A stretch of 64,000 nt of DNA, from contig JAXLQJ010000020.1 in the NCBI GenBank assembly GCA_046331705.1, forward strand, positions 1 to 64,000, read 5' to 3'. Positions 52,593 to 61,262 of this stretch are shown piece after piece. The DNA is from a bacterium (GTDB lineage: Bacteria > JADJOY01). Under the pieces are notes generated by a model. That model did no database searches and was not told the origin of the DNA. It was given only the letters and a program-made list of their open reading frames with translations. How positions within the stretch are numbered: the first letter of the stretch is position 1; the number at the start of each line of letters is the position of its first letter. The translations under genes were made by a program, and so were the position numbers.

Positions 52593-54131
52593 CTACGCCG
52601 CGGCGGCGAGGGGCTCGCGGATCGGCGCGGTGAGCCCGGCGGCGAGCATCTTCACCGGCAGGTCCGGCGCCTTGGTCAGCGCGCGGCGACGGAACGGGCT
52701 CGCGAGCAGCGTGAGGATGTCGCGTTTGCGCATGAAGCGTCCGAAGTTCCGCAGCAAGCGCGCGGTGCGAATCGGGCGGCGCGTGAGCCGGTGCGCGAAC
52801 AAGAGGCCGTACCCCTTCATCCGCAGCCGGTTGAGCTCTTCGCTGGGCAGGATGGTCGGATCGATGTCCGAGCACTTGAACCACTTCTGCCAATCGCGCT
52901 TGTCGTCGATCACGCCTTTCTCGACGTATTCCTGCCAGAGCGGCGTGCCGCGATAGGCACACAGACGGTTGAAGCCGAAGGTGTCGAGCTCGAGGCGCGC
53001 CGCGAAGCGGAAGCTCTCGAGCACGTCTTCCGCGGTCTCGTTGGGGGCGCCGATCAGGAAGAAGCCGTGGGCGCTGGCGATGCCCGCTTCCTTCGCCTTG
53101 CGCACCGCCAGCTCGATCTGCTCGAGCTTCTGGCCCTTCTTGAGCCGATCCAGCACCTTCTGGGTGCCGGCCTCGACGCCGAATGCGAGCATCGAGCATT
53201 TGGCCTTGGCCATGATCGGAAACTCGTTGATCGCCATCGAGTCGACGCGGCCTTCACAGCCCCACCGGAGATCGAGCTTGCGATCGATCATCCCCTGACA
53301 GATCGCCTCGATGCGTTTGCGCTTGAGCAGGAAGTGATCGTCGGTCAGGTAGACCGAGCGATAGCCGCGATCGTTGAGCATCTGCATCTCGCCGAGCACG
53401 TGCTCCGGCGAGCGCGAGCGCCACTTGCCGTCGGCGAGCGCCGGTATGTCGCAGTAAATGCAGGGATACGGACAACCACGCGACGTCTGCATGGTGCAGA
53501 ACCGGTCCAGCGAAAGCACCGCGGGCACGTCGAGGGGCATCGACTCGATGTACTCGATCGGCAAGCTCTCGCGGTCGGGATACGGGTACTTGTCGAGATC
53601 GCGGAGGATCGGCCCGTCCTCGTTGGTGACGATCTCGTCGCCGCGCCGCCACGAGAGGCTCGGCACGTCGCCTGGGCGGTGCATGTTGGCCAGGTATGCG
53701 GGCAGCAGCTCCTCGCCCTCGCCCTCGCCGACGGCGTCGGCGTGGGGGCAGTCCTCGAGGATCTGCACCGGATTGATCGACGCGAACGGTCCGCCGAGGA
53801 TGATCGGGGTCTTGGGAGACGCGGCCTTCAGCGTGGCCGCCATCGCCTTGGTCGCCGGATAGGAAGTCGTCGAGAGGAAGGACAGCCCGACCAGATCGGG
53901 CTGCTGATCGCGCACCGCTTGGGCGATGTGTTCGGGCTTCATCTCGGGGTGGCAGGTGTCGAAGAGCCGCACCTGGTGCCCGCGCTCGCGCAGCACCGGC
54001 GCCAGCGTCTGGATTCCCAGCGGCGGGAACGCCATCACCGGGAGACGGTTCTCGAACTGTGGACGGCGCAACCGCTCCGGCAACAGTCGGTAGTAATTCT
54101 CGTCGCGGACGTAAACGAGGAAGACGTTCAC
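52593..54131 (-). CDS. Cobalamin-binding (class B) radical SAM enzyme
   Basis: PPLGI, ILGGPFAS, GEGEE, TSRGCPYPCIYC, DDHF, GVEAG, FFLIG.PNET and GTPLW motifs. Confidence 0.92.
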   Translation of the reverse strand: MNVFLVYVRDENYYRLLPERLRRPQFENRLPVMAFPPLGIQTLAPVLRERGHQVRLFDTCHPEMKPEHIAQAVRDQQPDLVGLSFLSTTSYPATKAMAATLKAASPKTPIILGGPFASINPVQILEDCPHADAVGEGEGEELLPAYLANMHRPGDVPSLSWRRGDEIVTNEDGPILRDLDKYPYPDRESLPIEYIESMPLDVPAVLSLDRFCTMQTSRGCPYPCIYCDIPALADGKWRSRSPEHVLGEMQMLNDRGYRSVYLTDDHFLLKRKRIEAICQGMIDRKLDLRWGCEGRVDSMAINEFPIMAKAKCSMLAFGVEAGTQKVLDRLKKGQKLEQIELAVRKAKEAGIASAHGFFLIGAPNETAEDVLESFRFAARLELDTFGFNRLCAYRGTPLWQEYVEKGVIDDKRDWQKWFKCSDIDPTILPSEELNRLRMKGYGLLFAHRLTRRPIRTARLLRNFGRFMRKRDILTLLASPFRRRALTKAPDLPVKMLAAGLTAPIREPLAAAA

Positions 54132-54925: not shown

Positions 54926-55020
54926 GGCTGGACTCCGCGGGAGCGGCGAATGGTACGATCCGCGCGCGCCGATTGTACCCGCCGAAAAGTGCCGCCCAGC
55001 TGACATTGGTCATCGCGCCG

Positions 55021-56631
55021 ATGCCGTCCCGACCCAACCTCGCCGTCGCTCGCGCCACGAGCGTGCTGGTGGTCGCGCTGGCATTGGGCTGCGGCAGCGA
55101 CCACGGCGACGCCGACGGCGCGATCCGACTGCCCAAGAGCTTCGTGCTCGGCGCCGCCACCGCGGCGCAGCAGGTCGAAGGCGGCCTCACCAACACCGAT
55201 TGGTACCAGTTCACCACGCTCCCGGAATTCGCGGGCAAGACCGCCGAGCCGGCGGGCGCCGCAGCATCGAGCTACGAGCTCTACGACACCGATCACCAGC
55301 TGGTCGAGGACATGGGCCTCGACGCCTACCGGTTTTCCATCGACTGGAGCCGGGTGATGCCGCGCAAGGGCGTCTTCGACGAGCGCGAGATCGCCCATTA
55401 CCGCGCCGTCCTCGACTCCGTGCGTGCCCACGGGCTCGCGCCGTACGTCACGCTCCACCACTTCACCAACCCCATCTGGGTCTACGACCTCACCGACCTC
55501 GGTTGCGACGGCGGCCCCACGGACACCAATCTCTGTGGCTGGTCCAATCCCGAGGTGGCCGCACAATTCGCGCTGTTCTGCGGGCGCATGGCCGCGGAGC
55601 TCGGCGGTCAGGTCGATTGGTGGGCGACCTTCAACGAGCCCAACGTCTACTTCCTGAGCGGCTACACGGGCGGCAGCTTCCCGCCCGGGCTCTTCGCGCC
55701 GCTGCCGAGCGACATCTCGGGCTCGTTCTCGAAGGTCCTCGATCGGTACCTGAGCGCCCACGCCCAGTGCTACGACGCGATTCGCGCCAACGATACGATC
55801 GACGCGGACCACGATGGCGCCGCCGCGCGCGTCGGGCTCACCATCGCGACCACGGCCTACGAGCCGGCGGATCCCGCCGATCCCAAGCACGTGGCCGCCG
55901 CCGAGGCCTCCGGCGCGCCCGACTACTCGTTCGTGAACGGCGTGGTGGCTGGCGGCCTCGATCGCGACCTCGACGGCGTGATCGACGAGGACCGCCCCGC
56001 CTACCGCGACAAGCTCGATTGGCTCGGCCTCCAGTACTACCGCGAGGCCAAGGTGCTGCCGCTGCTCGCGAAGTACCCGCTCAGCTCGGTGCCCTGCGAG
56101 GACGAGATCACGGCGTTCGTGGGCCCGCTGGGACCGCTCTTGCTCGACCTGCTCGGTTGCCCGCGAGCGCCCTACCCCGACTTCCCGATCCCCAACTACA
56201 CCGGCCCCGGCCCCTACCACTGGGGAGGGGTGCACGCACCGGAAGCGCTCCTCGACGTCACGCGGCTGTGGGCGGATCGCTTCCCCACGACACCGTTGCT
56301 CATCACCGAGAACGGCTACGGCGTACGCGAGGGCGACTTCGCGATCGGCGGCAACCTTCGCGCCCAGAGCTTGGTGCGCCACCTGGCCGTGGTGCGGCAG
56401 ATCCTCGATTCGGGCATCGATCTGCGCGGCTATTTCCACTGGTCGCTGATCGACAACTTCGAGTGGGCGCAGGGCTTCGGCATCCGCTTCGGCCTCTACA
56501 CCCTCGATCGGGAAACATTCGCGCGCACCCCCACCGAGGCCGCGGCGGTGCTGAGCGAGATCGCCCACACGCGCCGCATCTCCCGCGAGCTGCTCGACAC
56601 CTACGGCGGCACCGGTGCGCTGCGGCGTTGA
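55021..56631 (+). CDS. GH1 beta-glycosidase with a lipoprotein signal
   Basis: GAATAAQQVEG, YRFSIDWSR, TLHHFTNP, TFNEP, ITENG and WSLIDNFEW; lipobox LALGC. Confidence 0.92.
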   Translation: MPSRPNLAVARATSVLVVALALGCGSDHGDADGAIRLPKSFVLGAATAAQQVEGGLTNTDWYQFTTLPEFAGKTAEPAGAAASSYELYDTDHQLVEDMGLDAYRFSIDWSRVMPRKGVFDEREIAHYRAVLDSVRAHGLAPYVTLHHFTNPIWVYDLTDLGCDGGPTDTNLCGWSNPEVAAQFALFCGRMAAELGGQVDWWATFNEPNVYFLSGYTGGSFPPGLFAPLPSDISGSFSKVLDRYLSAHAQCYDAIRANDTIDADHDGAAARVGLTIATTAYEPADPADPKHVAAAEASGAPDYSFVNGVVAGGLDRDLDGVIDEDRPAYRDKLDWLGLQYYREAKVLPLLAKYPLSSVPCEDEITAFVGPLGPLLLDLLGCPRAPYPDFPIPNYTGPGPYHWGGVHAPEALLDVTRLWADRFPTTPLLITENGYGVREGDFAIGGNLRAQSLVRHLAVVRQILDSGIDLRGYFHWSLIDNFEWAQGFGIRFGLYTLDRETFARTPTEAAAVLSEIAHTRRISRELLDTYGGTGALRR

Positions 56632-57415: not shown

Positions 57416-58342
57416 ATGAATCCCCTCGACCTTCGCGGCCCCGAGTTCCTGCTCTTCTACCTCGCCTTCGCGGCCGTGGTCGTGACCGCGCTGGCGTTGC
57501 TGCGGAGGCAGCTCGAGAGCGGCGATCCACCCAAGCTCCCAGTCGTCGACCCCTATCTCATCGCCTACGTGCGCGGCGGCGCCAACGAGGCGCTGCGCGT
57601 GGCGACGATCTCGCTCATCGACCGCGGTCTTCTCGAGGTTCACGGGGATCGGTTGGTTCGCGTGGCCACCCTCGAGCGGATCGAGGTCCGTCGACCGATC
57701 GAGCGCGCGCTGCTCGATTTCTTCGCTCCGCCGTCGAGCGGGCTGGTCCTCACCGGCGCCAAGAGGGCGTCCGAGATGTACCGGGACTCGAAGCTCGACG
57801 CGGCTTGCGAGAGCTATCGACACGAGGCCGAGCGCCTCAGGCTCTTACCCGACGAGAGCTGGCAGGCGCGACGAATCGTGCTCGGGATGGCGGCGATCGG
57901 GCTCCTCGCTGGGCTCGGATTCACGAAGATCTGGGTGGCGCTCGAGCGCGGCCACCGAAACATCGGTTTCCTGCTCGTCGAGATCGCGCTGGCGGTGTTC
58001 TGCGCGGTGTGGGTCCTCGGGCGGCGTCAGACCACCATCGGCGCACGGTTCGTGGCCGACATCCGCGAGATGCTCGATTCGCTCAGGCGCCGCGCATCGG
58101 TCATCCGCGCCGGTGGGAGAACGCAGGAATTGGCGCTGCTCGCGGGCGTGTTCGGGGTCGCCGCCTTACCCGAGGCGGTGGCCCCCTATCGCAAGAAGCT
58201 CTTTCCCCGGATCGAGCAGCAAGTCACCTCGAGCTGCGGTTCGTCGTGCGGCAGCGCGTGCGGGACCGGCTGCGGTGGCGGAGGAGGCGGCTGTGGCGGC
58301 GGGGGATGTGGGGGCGGCGGCTGCGGGGGCTGCGGTGCTTGA
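57416..58342 (+). CDS. TIGR04222-domain membrane protein with a Cys/Gly/Ser-rich C-terminal tail
   Basis: MNPLDLRGPEFLLFY, DPYLIAYVRGG, LIDRGLL and GHRNIGFL; tail SSCGSSCGSACGTGCGGGGGGCGGGGCGGGGCGGCGA. Confidence 0.88.
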   Translation: MNPLDLRGPEFLLFYLAFAAVVVTALALLRRQLESGDPPKLPVVDPYLIAYVRGGANEALRVATISLIDRGLLEVHGDRLVRVATLERIEVRRPIERALLDFFAPPSSGLVLTGAKRASEMYRDSKLDAACESYRHEAERLRLLPDESWQARRIVLGMAAIGLLAGLGFTKIWVALERGHRNIGFLLVEIALAVFCAVWVLGRRQTTIGARFVADIREMLDSLRRRASVIRAGGRTQELALLAGVFGVAALPEAVAPYRKKLFPRIEQQVTSSCGSSCGSACGTGCGGGGGGCGGGGCGGGGCGGCGA

Positions 58343-59501
58343 GACCACGGCGGCGGATCGCTTCGGTCTCGGCTGGCGCGCGCCGCTCGCCGCGGGAATC
58401 CTCGTCAACCTCGACCGCATCGACGTTCTCGAGGTGCTGGCCGACGACTACGTCCACGCTTCGCGGCGCGAGCGCCGGGCCTTGCGCACGCTGGCGCGGC
58501 AGGTGCCGGTCACGCTCCACGGAACCTCGCTCGGGCTCGCGTCCACCGAGACGGTCACGGCGAGACGGCTGGAACGATTGGCGCGGCTGGTGGGCGAGAT
58601 CGAACCCGTGGCGTGGTCGGAGCACCTGGCCTTCGTGCGCGGCGGCGAGCTCGAGATCGGGCATCTCGCCGCGCCGGCGCGCTGCGCCGAGACCGTCGAC
58701 GGGCTCGTGGCCAACGTGCGTCGGGCGCGCGAGATCGTGGGCTCGGCGCCGTTGCTCGAGAACGTCGCGACGCTGGTCGACCCGCCGCGAAGCGTGCTCG
58801 GCGAGGACGAGTGGGTGTCACGCTGCATCGAAGGAAGCGGCGCACCGCTGCTTCTCGACCTCCACAACCTCCACGCCAACGCCACGAACTTCGGTTTCGA
58901 TGCGGTCTCGCACCTGCGACGAATCCCGCTTCACCGAGTCGCGCAGGTCCACCTCGCGGGGGGGCGCTGGGTGGAGCGACACGGCGCACGGCGCATCCTC
59001 GACGACCATCTCCACGACGTGCCCGATCCCGTCTTCGCGCTGCTCGCCGAGGTCGCGCGACTGGCGCCGCAACCGCTCGTGGTGATCCTCGAACGCGATG
59101 GGAACTTCGAGACCATCGAGGATCTTCTCGCCGAGCTCGACCGCGCCCGCGCGGTGGTGGCCGGTGCGCGCCGAGAGCCCCGCCATGGCCTCGACGCGCC
59201 GGTCGGCGAGGCAGCCGCCAACCCTTCGCGACGCGAGCCGAACCTGGCGCCGGTCACCCCACCTTCCACGCCACGCCGCTGGCGGTGGCCGCGCTGGGGC
59301 GAGCGACGAGGCGCCGAAGCGCACGTCACCCCGACGATCGAGGCGACGATGGCACGAGTGTTCGTCGATGAGGCCGCGCGCGTGCGCTTCGCCGCCGCCG
59401 AGCCCACGCTCGATCGCTCCGGGCTCGCGCTCGCCGCGGAGAGCTACGCCCGCAAACGCGCAGCAAAGGCGCGCGGCCACGATCCAACTCCAAGGCGCTA
59501 G
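58335..59501 (+). CDS. DUF692 family multinuclear non-heme iron oxidative enzyme (MNIO) with a C-terminal extension
   Basis: GLGWR, LHGTSLGL, WSEHLAF, LENV, LLDLHNLHAN, VHLAGG, DDH and ILERD; GTG start overlaps the upstream gene end. Confidence 0.9.
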   Translation: MLETTAADRFGLGWRAPLAAGILVNLDRIDVLEVLADDYVHASRRERRALRTLARQVPVTLHGTSLGLASTETVTARRLERLARLVGEIEPVAWSEHLAFVRGGELEIGHLAAPARCAETVDGLVANVRRAREIVGSAPLLENVATLVDPPRSVLGEDEWVSRCIEGSGAPLLLDLHNLHANATNFGFDAVSHLRRIPLHRVAQVHLAGGRWVERHGARRILDDHLHDVPDPVFALLAEVARLAPQPLVVILERDGNFETIEDLLAELDRARAVVAGARREPRHGLDAPVGEAAANPSRREPNLAPVTPPSTPRRWRWPRWGERRGAEAHVTPTIEATMARVFVDEAARVRFAAAEPTLDRSGLALAAESYARKRAAKARGHDPTPRR

Positions 59502-60130
59502 CGGCGCAGCCCCAAACGCTCGGACAATCGAGCCAGCCAACGCGGGCGCACGCCGGTTGCGACTCGAATCACGCTCCAATGTTGGGGCCTATCGGAAGCT
59601 TCCGGGTGATCCCACACTCGAAGCCCGAGGCGAGCGCACAATGCTTCGAGCTCGTCGGCACCGAACGCCCACTCGTCCGTGGGCGGAAGCTCGTCGTCGT
59701 CGATCCCGAAGATCTCACCCTCGAATGCGAACGGCTCCCCTTCGTTTCGCGTGAGCCCGTCGCAGTACTCGAGAACACGGCGAACGCACCCATGCTCGTA
59801 GACAGCCAGGAGATACGCATCGCTGGTGGTCTGCGCGTTGACCACGATCACACGCGCGCCAAAACGCGCCGACAGGAGCGGTGCCAGATCGGCCATGTCG
59901 GAGAAGCAGTTGAAGTGCGCCACCAGCCAGCCGTCGCCGAGCGACGCGATCGCGAAAATCGTGGGCCGTTCGGCGGACGTCGCAAACCCGCTGCCGTAGA
60001 CGGTGAGGCCGACCTCGTCCCGCCGCGTCTCGATGGCAACCGCGGCGTGCGAACCAAGCCATTCGCTCAGCTCGGCGACGAGACCCTCGACGTCCGTGGT
60101 GCGGACGTGGAGCGCGGTGTAGGTCCCCAC
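59498..60130 (-). CDS. Hypothetical protein
   Basis: 210-aa ORF with globular composition that fills the gap after the dipeptidase gene. Confidence 0.6.
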   Translation of the reverse strand: MGTYTALHVRTTDVEGLVAELSEWLGSHAAVAIETRRDEVGLTVYGSGFATSAERPTIFAIASLGDGWLVAHFNCFSDMADLAPLLSARFGARVIVVNAQTTSDAYLLAVYEHGCVRRVLEYCDGLTRNEGEPFAFEGEIFGIDDDELPPTDEWAFGADELEALCARLGLRVWDHPEASDRPQHWSVIRVATGVRPRWLARLSERLGLRR

Positions 60131-60137
60131 CCGCGAG

Positions 60138-61262
60138 TCACTGGCCGCGCAGGCGCGCGGCGGTGCGTTCGACCTCGCGGAAGACGCGCAGCATGTTCTC
60201 GCCGTAGAGCTTGGCGAGCTCGCGCTCGCCGTAGCCGCGCGCCACGAGGTGCTCGGTGAGCACCGGCAGCGAGGCGGCGCTCGGCAAGTCGGTCGGCATC
60301 TTGACGATGCCGTCGTAGTCGGAGCCGATGCCCACGTGGTCGATGCCCACGGTCTTCACCACGTGCTCGATGTGATCGACCACGTCCTCGACGGTGGATT
60401 CGTTGCCCGGCGTGAGCCACAGGCTGGCGAAGAAGACGCCGATCACCCCGCCTTTCTCCGCGATGGCTTTCATGTCGTCGTCCGAGAGATTGCGAAAGAC
60501 GTCGTACACGCCGCGCACGCCGGTGTGGCTCACGATCACCGGCGCCTCGCTGATGGCGAGCGCGTCGCGGATCGAATCGGGATGGGTGTGCGCGAGGTCC
60601 ACGATCATGCCCAGGCGGTTCATGCGCTGGATGAGCTCGCGCCCCGCGTCCGTGAGCCCACCGTTGGGCAACGCCGCCAGCAGGTTGGTGTTCGCGTAGC
60701 CGTTGGGCGTGAAGTGAGCGAGCCCGATGTAGCGCAGGCCCTCCTCGTAGAGCGTGGCGACGTTGGACGCGTCGGGCCCGACCCCGTGCGCCCCCTCGAG
60801 CCCCATGAGTGCCGGCATCTTGCCGTTGCGATGGATGCGCTCGATGTCGGCGCTCGAGAGCGCGAGCTGCATCCGATCCGAGTTGTCCGCGATCACGCGC
60901 CGGGCGGTGCGCATCGTGTTGCGGGCGTCGTCCACGCAATGCTGGGGATCGCAGAGCGGCCACACCACGATGCCGAGCCACACCGCGTCGGTGCCGCCCT
61001 CGACGAGCCCCGGCAGATCGGCCTGGGGCTTGTAGAAGTATTCGAGGCCCGAGGGCGGCGGATGCGATTCCGCGAAGTTGGTGCCGTAGAGCGTGGTGAA
61101 GAGGATCGAGTCGACGTGCATGTCCATCACGAAGAGCCGCTCGTGGAGCGCGCGCGCGTCACCGACGCTGGCGGCCGAGCCGCCGCCCGAATCGCAGCCG
61201 ACCGCGCCCGCGAGCGCGACCACCAGCGCGAGCGCGGGCGAGCGGCTCCCCCGTCGCCTCAC
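60138..61262 (-). CDS. Membrane dipeptidase (peptidase M19) lipoprotein
   Basis: DMHVD, GLEG, GLTDAGRELI..MNRLGMIVDLAH, VSHTG, RNLSD and GIGSDYDG; lipobox GAVGC. Confidence 0.93.
   Translation of the reverse strand: MRRRGSRSPALALVVALAGAVGCDSGGGSAASVGDARALHERLFVMDMHVDSILFTTLYGTNFAESHPPPSGLEYFYKPQADLPGLVEGGTDAVWLGIVVWPLCDPQHCVDDARNTMRTARRVIADNSDRMQLALSSADIERIHRNGKMPALMGLEGAHGVGPDASNVATLYEEGLRYIGLAHFTPNGYANTNLLAALPNGGLTDAGRELIQRMNRLGMIVDLAHTHPDSIRDALAISEAPVIVSHTGVRGVYDVFRNLSDDDMKAIAEKGGVIGVFFASLWLTPGNESTVEDVVDHIEHVVKTVGIDHVGIGSDYDGIVKMPTDLPSAASLPVLTEHLVARGYGERELAKLYGENMLRVFREVERTAARLRGQ

Follow-up and report, generated by a model that had tools for sequence, protein, structure and literature searches.

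A cysteine-rich membrane protein tail as the putative substrate of an MNIO oxidase that carries a partner-like C-terminal module

What does an oxidase of the MNIO (DUF692) family act on when the gene that precedes it encodes an integral membrane protein ending in a run of cysteines? The question is raised by a 64,000-nucleotide (nt) stretch of a bacterial contig (JAXLQJ010000020.1, positions 1 to 64,000; assembly GCA_046331705.1; GTDB lineage JADJOY01), referred to here as the window, in which a membrane protein of family TIGR04222 is followed by an MNIO gene (57416-59501). The original prediction, made from the letters and their open reading frames (ORFs), paired the two and proposed the tail of the membrane protein as the substrate of the enzyme. 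The pairing is real: the membrane protein scores 90.6 bits against NCBIfam TIGR04222 (cut-off 43; profile positions 1-229 of 229), and the enzyme scores 212.5 bits against PF05114 (E 8.6e-63, cut-off 25; profile positions 2-262 of 263). Our answer, which we hold with slightly better than even confidence, is that the MNIO oxidises the cysteines of the tail, most likely to 5-thiooxazoles, on a membrane-anchored, metal-binding tail that faces the cytoplasm.

Neither the pairing nor the idea of the tail as substrate is new: genome mining in 2025 (PMC12452194, Microb Genom) had already proposed Ser/Gly-rich, Cys-interspersed TIGR04222 tails as likely MNIO substrates. According to that study, TIGR04222 proteins make up 40% of the Cys-containing proteins that lack a signal peptide and whose genes precede an MNIO gene; the MNIOs linked to them fall near those of bufferins and oxazolins, and the nature of the tail modification is left for investigation. 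The accompanying statement that the biochemistry of the pairing had not been characterised agrees with the literature on TIGR04222 and with the MNIO papers since 2025 that were listed, the latter judged by title and the start of the abstract, where we found no such work; the locus belongs to a predicted, biochemically uncharacterised kind. To the published picture we add a LigA/NHLP-like partner and its fusion to the enzyme, a gene for a putative nucleotidyltransferase-fold protein, the mutually exclusive pairing of the membrane protein with MNIO or SbtM-type enzymes, a predicted docking site, and a case for a cytoplasmic tail.

The gene at the centre of the locus is the only TIGR04222 gene of the source genome. 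The last 37 residues of its product (272-308) consist of Gly, Ser and Cys with a few Ala and Thr, and they hold the eight cysteines that the original prediction had counted, each of them followed by Gly. The same composition recurs in homologues, of which we used the best 120 of the 2339 found at E <= 0.001 among 8000 scored candidates, mostly 40-49% identical to the window protein. All 120 have CGGCG inside their last ten residues, and their tails contain four to nine cysteines each (median seven). Gly follows 749 of the 796 tail cysteines while accounting for 46% of tail residues overall, and Ser, at 28% of tail residues, stands before Cys 376 times and after it only 40 times. Because this [S/G]-Cys-Gly pattern is directional, it points to selection on the peptide and not to the base composition of high-G+C DNA.

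An AlphaFold2 model of the membrane protein (mean predicted local distance difference test, pLDDT, 85.9; predicted template modelling score, pTM, 0.79) has three long helices (residues 8-34, 147-177 and 184-201), a series of short K/R-rich helices between residues 207 and 271, and a disordered tail (273-308, pLDDT below 50). Between the first two long helices lies a soluble domain (46-102) modelled as helix-helix-strand-strand-helix, which is winged-helix-like and, from the order of its secondary structure elements, gives the impression of a RiPP recognition element (RRE; RiPP, ribosomally synthesised and post-translationally modified peptide). Foldseek returned no match for the model in the PDB at E <= 0.001, and the sole matches of a wide VIA search were generic three-helix bundles aligned to residues 1-207 (best Z 11.1), a result that says little where long helices are concerned. 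The opposite end of the protein carries an almost invariant motif, MNPFDLxGPEF (57416-57445, residues 1-10), with N2, D5, G8, P9 and F11 present in 26 of 26 sequences; it would lie outside the cell under the topology favoured below.

The enzyme appears to be intact. Its AlphaFold2 model (pLDDT 84.5, pTM 0.85) contains a TIM barrel at residues 8-279 that matches TglH (8hci_B, E 2.8e-17), 3bww (1.8e-16) and MbnB (7tcr_A, 3.0e-12) in Foldseek, and sequence searches recover a TglH chain (8hci_D, E 2.4e-16) and the HvfB-like 3bww (E 1.7e-18). The metal-ligand motifs, described as intact in the original prediction, are so: in an alignment of 20 sequences H61, H96, E141, D174, N177, H205, D222, H224 and E252 (numbered from nt 58338) are invariant and E95 is nearly so. 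By analogy with MbnB, these conserved residues would belong to iron sites 1 and 2. The pattern N...D.H also matches the site-3 residues N175, D242 and H244 of HvfB, whose alanine variants are inactive (10.64898/2026.07.17.739211). Fold and motifs indicate a complete enzyme, for which iron- and O2-dependent peptide oxidation is predicted. The protein has no signal peptide. That its start overlaps the end of the preceding gene had been recognised, and the overlap stands; the exact position does not, since the likely start is the GTG at 58335-58337, which overlaps the membrane-protein gene by 8 nt (its last two codons and the TGA at 58340-58342) and fits a database protein of 388 amino acids (P0001, 100% identical).

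Among the NCBIfam models BufB fits this enzyme best, at a score below the equivalog cut-off (NF050167, 178.8 bits against 310), as is the score for HvfB (NF003818, 137.6 against 360), and TIGR04222-linked MNIOs from two other loci behave similarly on the BufB model (175.9 and 234.9 bits). The source genome encodes three MNIOs. The other two pass the BufB cut-off (389.7 and 366.3 bits) as equivalogs and have a DUF2063 gene after them, in bufferin-type operons on two further contigs (C9:199336-200118 and C12:35880-36662; loci L001 and L002). The window enzyme is the only one of the three without a DUF2063 partner gene, and it adjoins the only TIGR04222 gene of the genome. On account of these scores and gene neighbours we regard it as a member of a BufB-related but separate subfamily dedicated to its TIGR04222 neighbour; because the scores lie under the equivalog cut-offs, its chemistry could differ from that of BufB and HvfB.

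How often the two families stand together, which the original prediction had proposed to measure, was counted in 74 loci from many phyla, collected by a pattern-plus-tblastn scan with one genome per species, the patterns being the tail end and the N-terminal motif. Sixty-seven of these loci have room for the count, defined as 1000 nt or more of sequence after the membrane-protein gene, and genes were recognised with hidden Markov models (HMMs) built during the analysis. An MNIO gene lies on the same strand within 300 nt downstream in 45 of the 67 and farther away (923-1803 nt) in three; the remaining 19 have none in the locus. Two same-genus genomes carry the same TIGR04222-MNIO arrangement. 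In two loci a single MNIO follows two TIGR04222 genes, which stand in tandem in one (L030, 6141-6995 and 7001-7864) and about 850 nt apart in the other (L074, 7016-7918 and 8769-9668). The source lineage itself is thinly sampled, with four genomes of the same genus and one of the same family; its other relatives share only the domain.

In five genomes, of unstated completeness, that encode a Cys-tailed TIGR04222 protein with no adjacent MNIO, neither the window protein nor PF05114 found a match, although a control genome was positive. Each of the five has exactly one match to TIGR04082, the SbtM family (457.6-499.3 bits in four and 156.2 in the fifth, against a cut-off of 350), and in all five the SbtM-type gene lies directly after the TIGR04222 gene, in the position otherwise held by the MNIO. 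Across the whole sample, a radical SAM/SPASM gene of SbtM type occurs in seven of the 19 MNIO-less loci with room and in one further, truncated locus, and MNIO and SbtM-type genes never occur together in any locus. The membrane proteins at four SbtM-linked loci are members of TIGR04222 (57.7-117.2 bits) and match no other credible NCBIfam family at E <= 1. The SbtM-type genes (L022, L035, L040 and L066; loci L082-L085) match only positions ~195-516 of the 516 positions of TIGR04082, and the absent first ~190 positions are perhaps a peptide-recognition domain that is not needed for a membrane-protein substrate.

This exchange of enzymes bears on the product, because SbtM converts the cysteine or selenocysteine in Gly-Cys/GGUG contexts to a thio(seleno)oxazole, with a loss of 4 amu and a band at 304 nm (PMC9204691), and bufferin-like MNIOs form 5-thiooxazoles with a band at ~305 nm, the 5-thiooxazole-forming MNIO FonB favouring a Cys-Gly dyad (PMC13097082). 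One position beside the tail is thus shared by two enzyme families that are unrelated yet produce the same heterocycle. No other indirect evidence speaks as strongly, in our view, for the tail as substrate and a thiooxazole as product. The proposal in the original prediction that the MNIO acts on the tail is thus supported by linkage, Cys-Gly context, enzyme exchange and predicted docking, to which we now turn.

Complex modelling of the MNIO with the membrane protein, a check suggested along with the original prediction, yielded a docked pair. With both proteins at full length the interface score ipSAE reached 0.77 (median of three runs), and the best of three controls reached 0.10; 85% or more of the contacts recur between runs, and the partner has a pLDDT of at least 74. 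The mark used for this score was reached by 58 of 80 solved complexes and 2 of 110 mismatched pairs, a calibration that is only rough here, our own alignments having been used. Since the membrane protein has no look-alike among solved structures, the score is unlikely to stem from a remembered complex. The contacts predicted with confidence are between MNIO residues 15-26, 44-55 and 258-261 and residues 37-46, 211-223 and 235-242 of the membrane protein, so that the predicted docking helices lie ~30 residues before the tail.

The side of the membrane on which this would take place was judged from charge counts, given as means over the best 120 homologues, and from the models. On the putative outer side, Lys plus Arg average 0.29 at the N-terminus and 1.87 in the loop that connects helices 2 and 3; on the side of the domain and tail they average 2.85 after helix 1, 3.35 before helix 2, 5.92 after helix 3 (residues 204-242) and 2.62 just before the tail, where Asp plus Glu average 0.3. 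A fourth hydrophobic stretch (239-255, 17 residues, mean hydropathy 1.53 over the 120 homologues) is modelled as a ten-residue helix that touches the MNIO in the complex. These counts and models, used here in place of a dedicated topology predictor, favour a protein with its N-terminus outside and its domain and tail in the cytoplasm. A cytoplasmic tail is also in keeping with docking on that face by an MNIO that lacks a signal peptide.

The original prediction reported no separate small precursor ORF nearby, and among the ORFs of the window no other Cys-rich small ORF was seen near the pair; it had overlooked, however, the gene upstream and a module at the C-terminus of the MNIO. The cassette consists of three genes and four parts: a putative nucleotidyltransferase-fold protein, the TIGR04222 membrane protein, and the MNIO with a fused small LigA/NHLP-like module. 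The window MNIO is ~100 residues longer than most of its relatives (only six of its best 120 matches cover at least 95% of it), the additional part being a non-conserved linker followed by ~45 conserved residues, which are modelled as helices at 334-343, 345-354 and 360-378 with pLDDT 83-90. An HMM of the module, built from six fused proteins, matches separate short ORFs (best E 3.3e-19) whose starts coincide with or overlap the stop codon of the MNIO gene. Such small ORFs were delimited in at least 22 loci and encode 62-91 amino acids, with a conserved pattern at both ends of the helical domain. Of the 47 MNIO loci whose sequence continues for 300 nt or more beyond the domain, 24 contain the module at E <= 1e-4, three of these being in-frame fusions (L042 is also positive and lies outside that count). 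The fusion is found in the window and at least eight other sequences. It is also found in two of the four same-genus genomes searched; the other two genomes are 86% and 74% complete. The window copy of the module lacks the central ~17 residues, a hairpin in the longer versions.

The small proteins homologous to the module resemble RiPP leaders. On NCBIfam NF038399 (Os1348 NHLP clan; cut-off 40) they reach at most 40.3 and on Pfam LigA (PF07746; cut-off 25.3) at most 26.7, each cut-off being reached by one of five proteins; Frankia_peptide stays under its cut-off; and LigA-domain RiPP precursors, among them SonA of the borosins, appear in a PDB profile search at E ~1e-3. In more distant MNIO loci the downstream gene encodes a protein of ~160-250 amino acids that opens with the same pattern as the small protein, and hhalign aligns the small protein with the N-terminus of the ~200-residue post-MNIO proteins with 98.6% probability (E 5e-16, 74 columns). 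As to a relation with the DUF2063-like partners termed PME-type 2, among eight post-MNIO proteins (161-358 amino acids) PF09836 (DUF2063) gave only a weak match, to the 161-residue ORF of L077 (E 0.0037, 17.9 against 27.2), which is differently patterned and lies outside the hhalign alignment, and PDB profile searches with the longer proteins found neither DUF2063 (3dee) nor a TglI chain.

Three features lead us to read the small protein as a minimal MNIO partner and not as a substrate: neither Cys nor a core is conserved in it, at least nine sequences have it joined to the enzyme, and its homology extends to the opening part of longer, partner-like proteins. From sequence comparison, the C-terminal module of the window MNIO looks like a natural fusion of an enzyme with its partner. 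Such an arrangement has an engineered parallel: to attain its active, mixed-valent iron state HvfB requires the partner HvfC, and the form assayed for activity was an engineered HvfB-HvfC fusion (10.64898/2026.07.17.739211), to which the MNIO-module protein would be the natural counterpart.

The first gene of the cassette lies 46 nt upstream of the membrane-protein gene. Among the 74 loci, 66 of which have at least 800 nt upstream, 32 have a homologue immediately before TIGR04222, mostly at a gap of 0-20 nt; homologues also occur in loci without an MNIO, and in L074 a nucleotidyltransferase-like gene lies between the two TIGR04222 genes. The window copy scores 17.6 bits against Pfam NTP_transf_2, below the cut-off of 21, whereas 20 of 25 aligned homologues match Pfam Polbeta (E <= 0.01) and 15 of 25 match NTP_transf_2, and a PDB profile search with the family finds the adenylyltransferase ANT(3'')(9) (E 3.1e-5), in a match confined to the N-terminal ~50 residues. 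In the motif GS...SDxN, G37, S48, D49 and N51 are invariant, with Asn in place of the second catalytic carboxylate.

The sequences and models show the gene order, its conservation, the family membership of the parts, the fusion and a predicted docking; from these we infer the modification, its chemistry, the topology and the metal as follows. The membrane protein would insert with its short N-terminus outside, so that the winged-helix-like domain, the juxtamembrane helices and the tail face the cytoplasm. The signal-less, cytoplasmic MNIO would dock on the juxtamembrane helices at ~211-242, which would serve as an internal 'leader', and its iron cluster and O2 would oxidise the cysteines of the tail Cys-Gly pairs, the likeliest product being a 5-thiooxazole with a loss of 4 Da per Cys. 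The fused module would do the job that separate partner proteins do for other MNIOs. The product may be a membrane-anchored tail with as many as eight thiooxazole-thiolate ligands; the metal would most plausibly be copper or another soft one.

The closest relatives of this arrangement are the TIGR04222-MNIO clusters of PMC12452194, which share its gene order, the Ser/Gly-rich Cys tail, the lack of a DUF2063 gene (PME-type 1), a bufferin-related MNIO and the hypothesis that the tail is the substrate; many of them, as described there, apparently have no partner gene. They differ from the window in that their tails are predicted to be periplasmic and in that the window MNIO has its partner module fused, and term searches of the main text of that study returned no nucleotidyltransferase-fold gene, LigA/NHLP-like third component or radical SAM replacement; the very small proteins it calls 'adjamnio-V' may or may not equal the small partner described here. 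Captophorins (the bufferins BufABC, the oxazolin HvfABC and the fontiphorin FonABC) likewise combine the MNIO fold and invariant motifs with a multi-Cys, Cys-Gly substrate, their enzymes depend on a partner protein, and a 5-thiooxazole with copper binding is the expected product (PMC13097082; 10.64898/2026.07.17.739211). Their precursors, however, are small secreted proteins with a Sec signal peptide, whereas in the window the candidate substrate forms the C-terminal tail of a 308-residue protein that has three long helices. Captophorin enzymes have DUF2063-RRE proteins as partners; the window has a fused helical module of ~45 residues and no DUF2063 gene next to the MNIO. MbnBC and TglHI share the TIM barrel (Foldseek E 2.8e-17 to 1.2e-10, target-normalised TM-score 0.76-0.81) and a partner subunit, but at 18-24% identity, with MbnC or TglI as partners and small leader-bearing peptides as substrates. 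SbtM acts at Gly-Cys/GGUG sites akin to the GGCG of the window tail (PMC9204691); unlike the MNIO, it belongs to an unrelated, O2-independent family that is absent from the window.

Several observations weigh against oxidation of a cytoplasmic tail by this MNIO. The enzyme lies under every NCBIfam equivalog cut-off, the window's own copy of the module has no Pfam or NCBIfam match at E <= 1, and no copper gene was seen among the eight ORFs scanned near the cassette. The tail itself falls outside the confident contacts of the complex model. In 12 of the 19 MNIO-less loci with room, neither an MNIO nor a radical SAM gene occurs within ~7 kb, and because of these loci the tail may work unmodified in some lineages; a third of the TIGR04222 genomes surveyed in PMC12452194 have no MNIO at all, and that study predicts the low-complexity tails to be periplasmic. 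In the literature that mentions the family we found no experimental modification of a TIGR04222 tail. The sample of loci is biased, and because the search patterns include the tail motif, the linkage counts describe this subfamily and not TIGR04222 as a whole; together with the 12 loci that have neither enzyme and a topology drawn from charge counts and models, this bias is a weak point of the argument.

These observations bear on four alternatives. Of these, the one we take most seriously, though we think it unlikely, keeps the chemistry and moves the tail and large domain to the periplasm, the cysteines being modified in the cytoplasm before or during insertion and the product serving as a bufferin-like periplasmic metal buffer: bufferins act in the periplasm (PMC12452194), there is the fourth, moderately hydrophobic stretch, and the N-terminal motif is strongly conserved, against which stand the clustering of positive charge on the domain and tail side, the modelling of the fourth stretch as a helix of only ten residues, and the predicted docking of a signal-less MNIO on that same side. 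That the tail cysteines are modified by the MNIO but with another outcome, such as the oxazolone-thioamide of methanobactin, the beta-carbon excision of TglH, or cross-links, is slightly less likely still in our view. The sub-threshold BufB and HvfB scores, the chemical diversity of MNIOs (PMC12452194, Table 1), and a match to TglH nearly as strong as that to 3bww leave room for it, whereas BufB is nonetheless the best NCBIfam model, the TIGR04222-linked MNIOs fall near bufferin and oxazolin enzymes, the replacement in MNIO-less genomes is of the thio(seleno)oxazole maturase SbtM type, and a large bufferin-like group has been argued to make 5-thiooxazoles (PMC13097082).

If instead the tail were a metallothionein-like thiolate site or another unmodified element, and the MNIO merely co-transcribed with it and aimed at another target, then the 12 loci with neither enzyme, the genomes without any MNIO and the absence of the tail from the confident contacts would be readily accounted for; we nevertheless consider this quite improbable, given the 8-nt overlap of the genes, the adjacency in 45 of 67 loci, the two unrelated Cys-oxidising maturase families that share one position and never co-occur, the predicted docking, and the lack of another Cys-rich ORF nearby. 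Least probable by our estimate, and very much so, is a role of the small LigA/NHLP-like protein as the actual RiPP precursor, with the membrane protein as a scaffold, exporter, immunity factor or similar accessory. Its likeness to RiPP leaders speaks for such a role, but no Cys or core is conserved after its helical domain, it is fused to the C-terminus of the enzyme, the window copy is shortened, and its match to the first ~74 residues of the ~200-residue post-MNIO proteins fits a partner. Oxidation of the cytoplasmic tail by the MNIO is therefore the reading on which we build below.

The coordinates of the cassette and its parts are collected in Table 1.

Table 1. Parts of the TIGR04222-MNIO cassette, with positions in the window
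Feature	Position	Strand	Basis
Putative nucleotidyltransferase-fold (Pol beta-like) protein, 244 amino acids	56635..57369	+	ORF; first gene of the conserved cassette
TIGR04222 membrane protein, 308 amino acids	57416..58342	+	ORF; NCBIfam TIGR04222
K/R-rich juxtamembrane helices, residues 204-242, predicted MNIO docking site	58025..58141	+	Contacts in the complex model
Gly/Ser/Cys tail, residues 272-308, 8 Cys, proposed substrate	58229..58339	+	ORF sequence; tail motif conserved in homologues
MNIO (DUF692) catalytic TIM barrel, GTG start	58335..59174	+	PF05114; Foldseek
Low-complexity linker of the MNIO, residues 280-333 (numbered from nt 58338)	59175..59336	+	pLDDT 45-60; unconserved in fused homologues
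Fused C-terminal helical module of the MNIO, then a short basic end and the stop codon	59337..59501	+	HMM homology to separate small ORFs

Around the cassette lie genes of other kinds. A GH1 glycoside hydrolase gene (54973-56631, + strand; Pfam 227.9 bits), whose product has a lipoprotein-like N-terminus, ends 4 nt before the cassette and, because of this small gap, may be co-transcribed with it in the source genome; we considered it as a member of the system and dropped it, the sole pointer being a cluster of antisense-shadow ORFs in five loci. About 3.3 kb upstream, a B12-binding radical SAM protein (52593-54131, - strand; Pfam B12-binding 83.9 bits, Radical_SAM 77.9 bits) has no visible link to the cassette. 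Downstream, a 210-residue protein with a weak, sub-cut-off match to DUF6928 (59498-60130, - strand) converges on the MNIO gene, the two stop codons overlapping by 4 nt, and is followed by an M19 membrane dipeptidase (60138-61262, - strand; 295.5 bits), which also adjoins the cassette in two same-genus loci (L080 and L081). RNA libraries (four runs from three studies) contain short, near-identical contig pieces of 315 and 222 nt in the membrane-protein gene and of 221 and 157 nt in the MNIO gene; because such contigs can derive from DNA, they are at most a weak hint of transcription.

To our knowledge, the MNIO products characterised to date are all peptides or small secreted proteins. If the reading favoured here is true, an MNIO post-translationally equips an integral membrane protein with a metal-binding array on its tail, which would extend RiPP-type chemistry to true proteins. 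From a published hint in gene neighbourhoods, our comparisons define a minimal substrate (residues ~204-308) and a predicted docking site, and the natural fusion of the MNIO with its partner may be active alone. Modification would be expected to show as a loss of 4 Da per Cys and absorbance at ~305 nm, with the SbtM-type enzymes as the O2-independent counterpart, and the conserved nucleotidyltransferase-fold gene is a candidate additional player. More tentatively, as a possibility to which we give distinctly less credence than to the reading of this one locus, TIGR04222 proteins with Gly-Cys tails and their nucleotidyltransferase-fold neighbour may form a widespread membrane module that carries arrays of 5-thio(seleno)oxazoles made by interchangeable maturases, an O2-dependent MNIO with a minimal LigA-like partner, fused to it in the window, in aerobes and an O2-independent SbtM-type enzyme in anaerobes; whole membrane proteins would then be a major substrate class of both enzyme families, and the tail a cytoplasmic, membrane-tethered trap, sensor or relay for soft metals such as copper.

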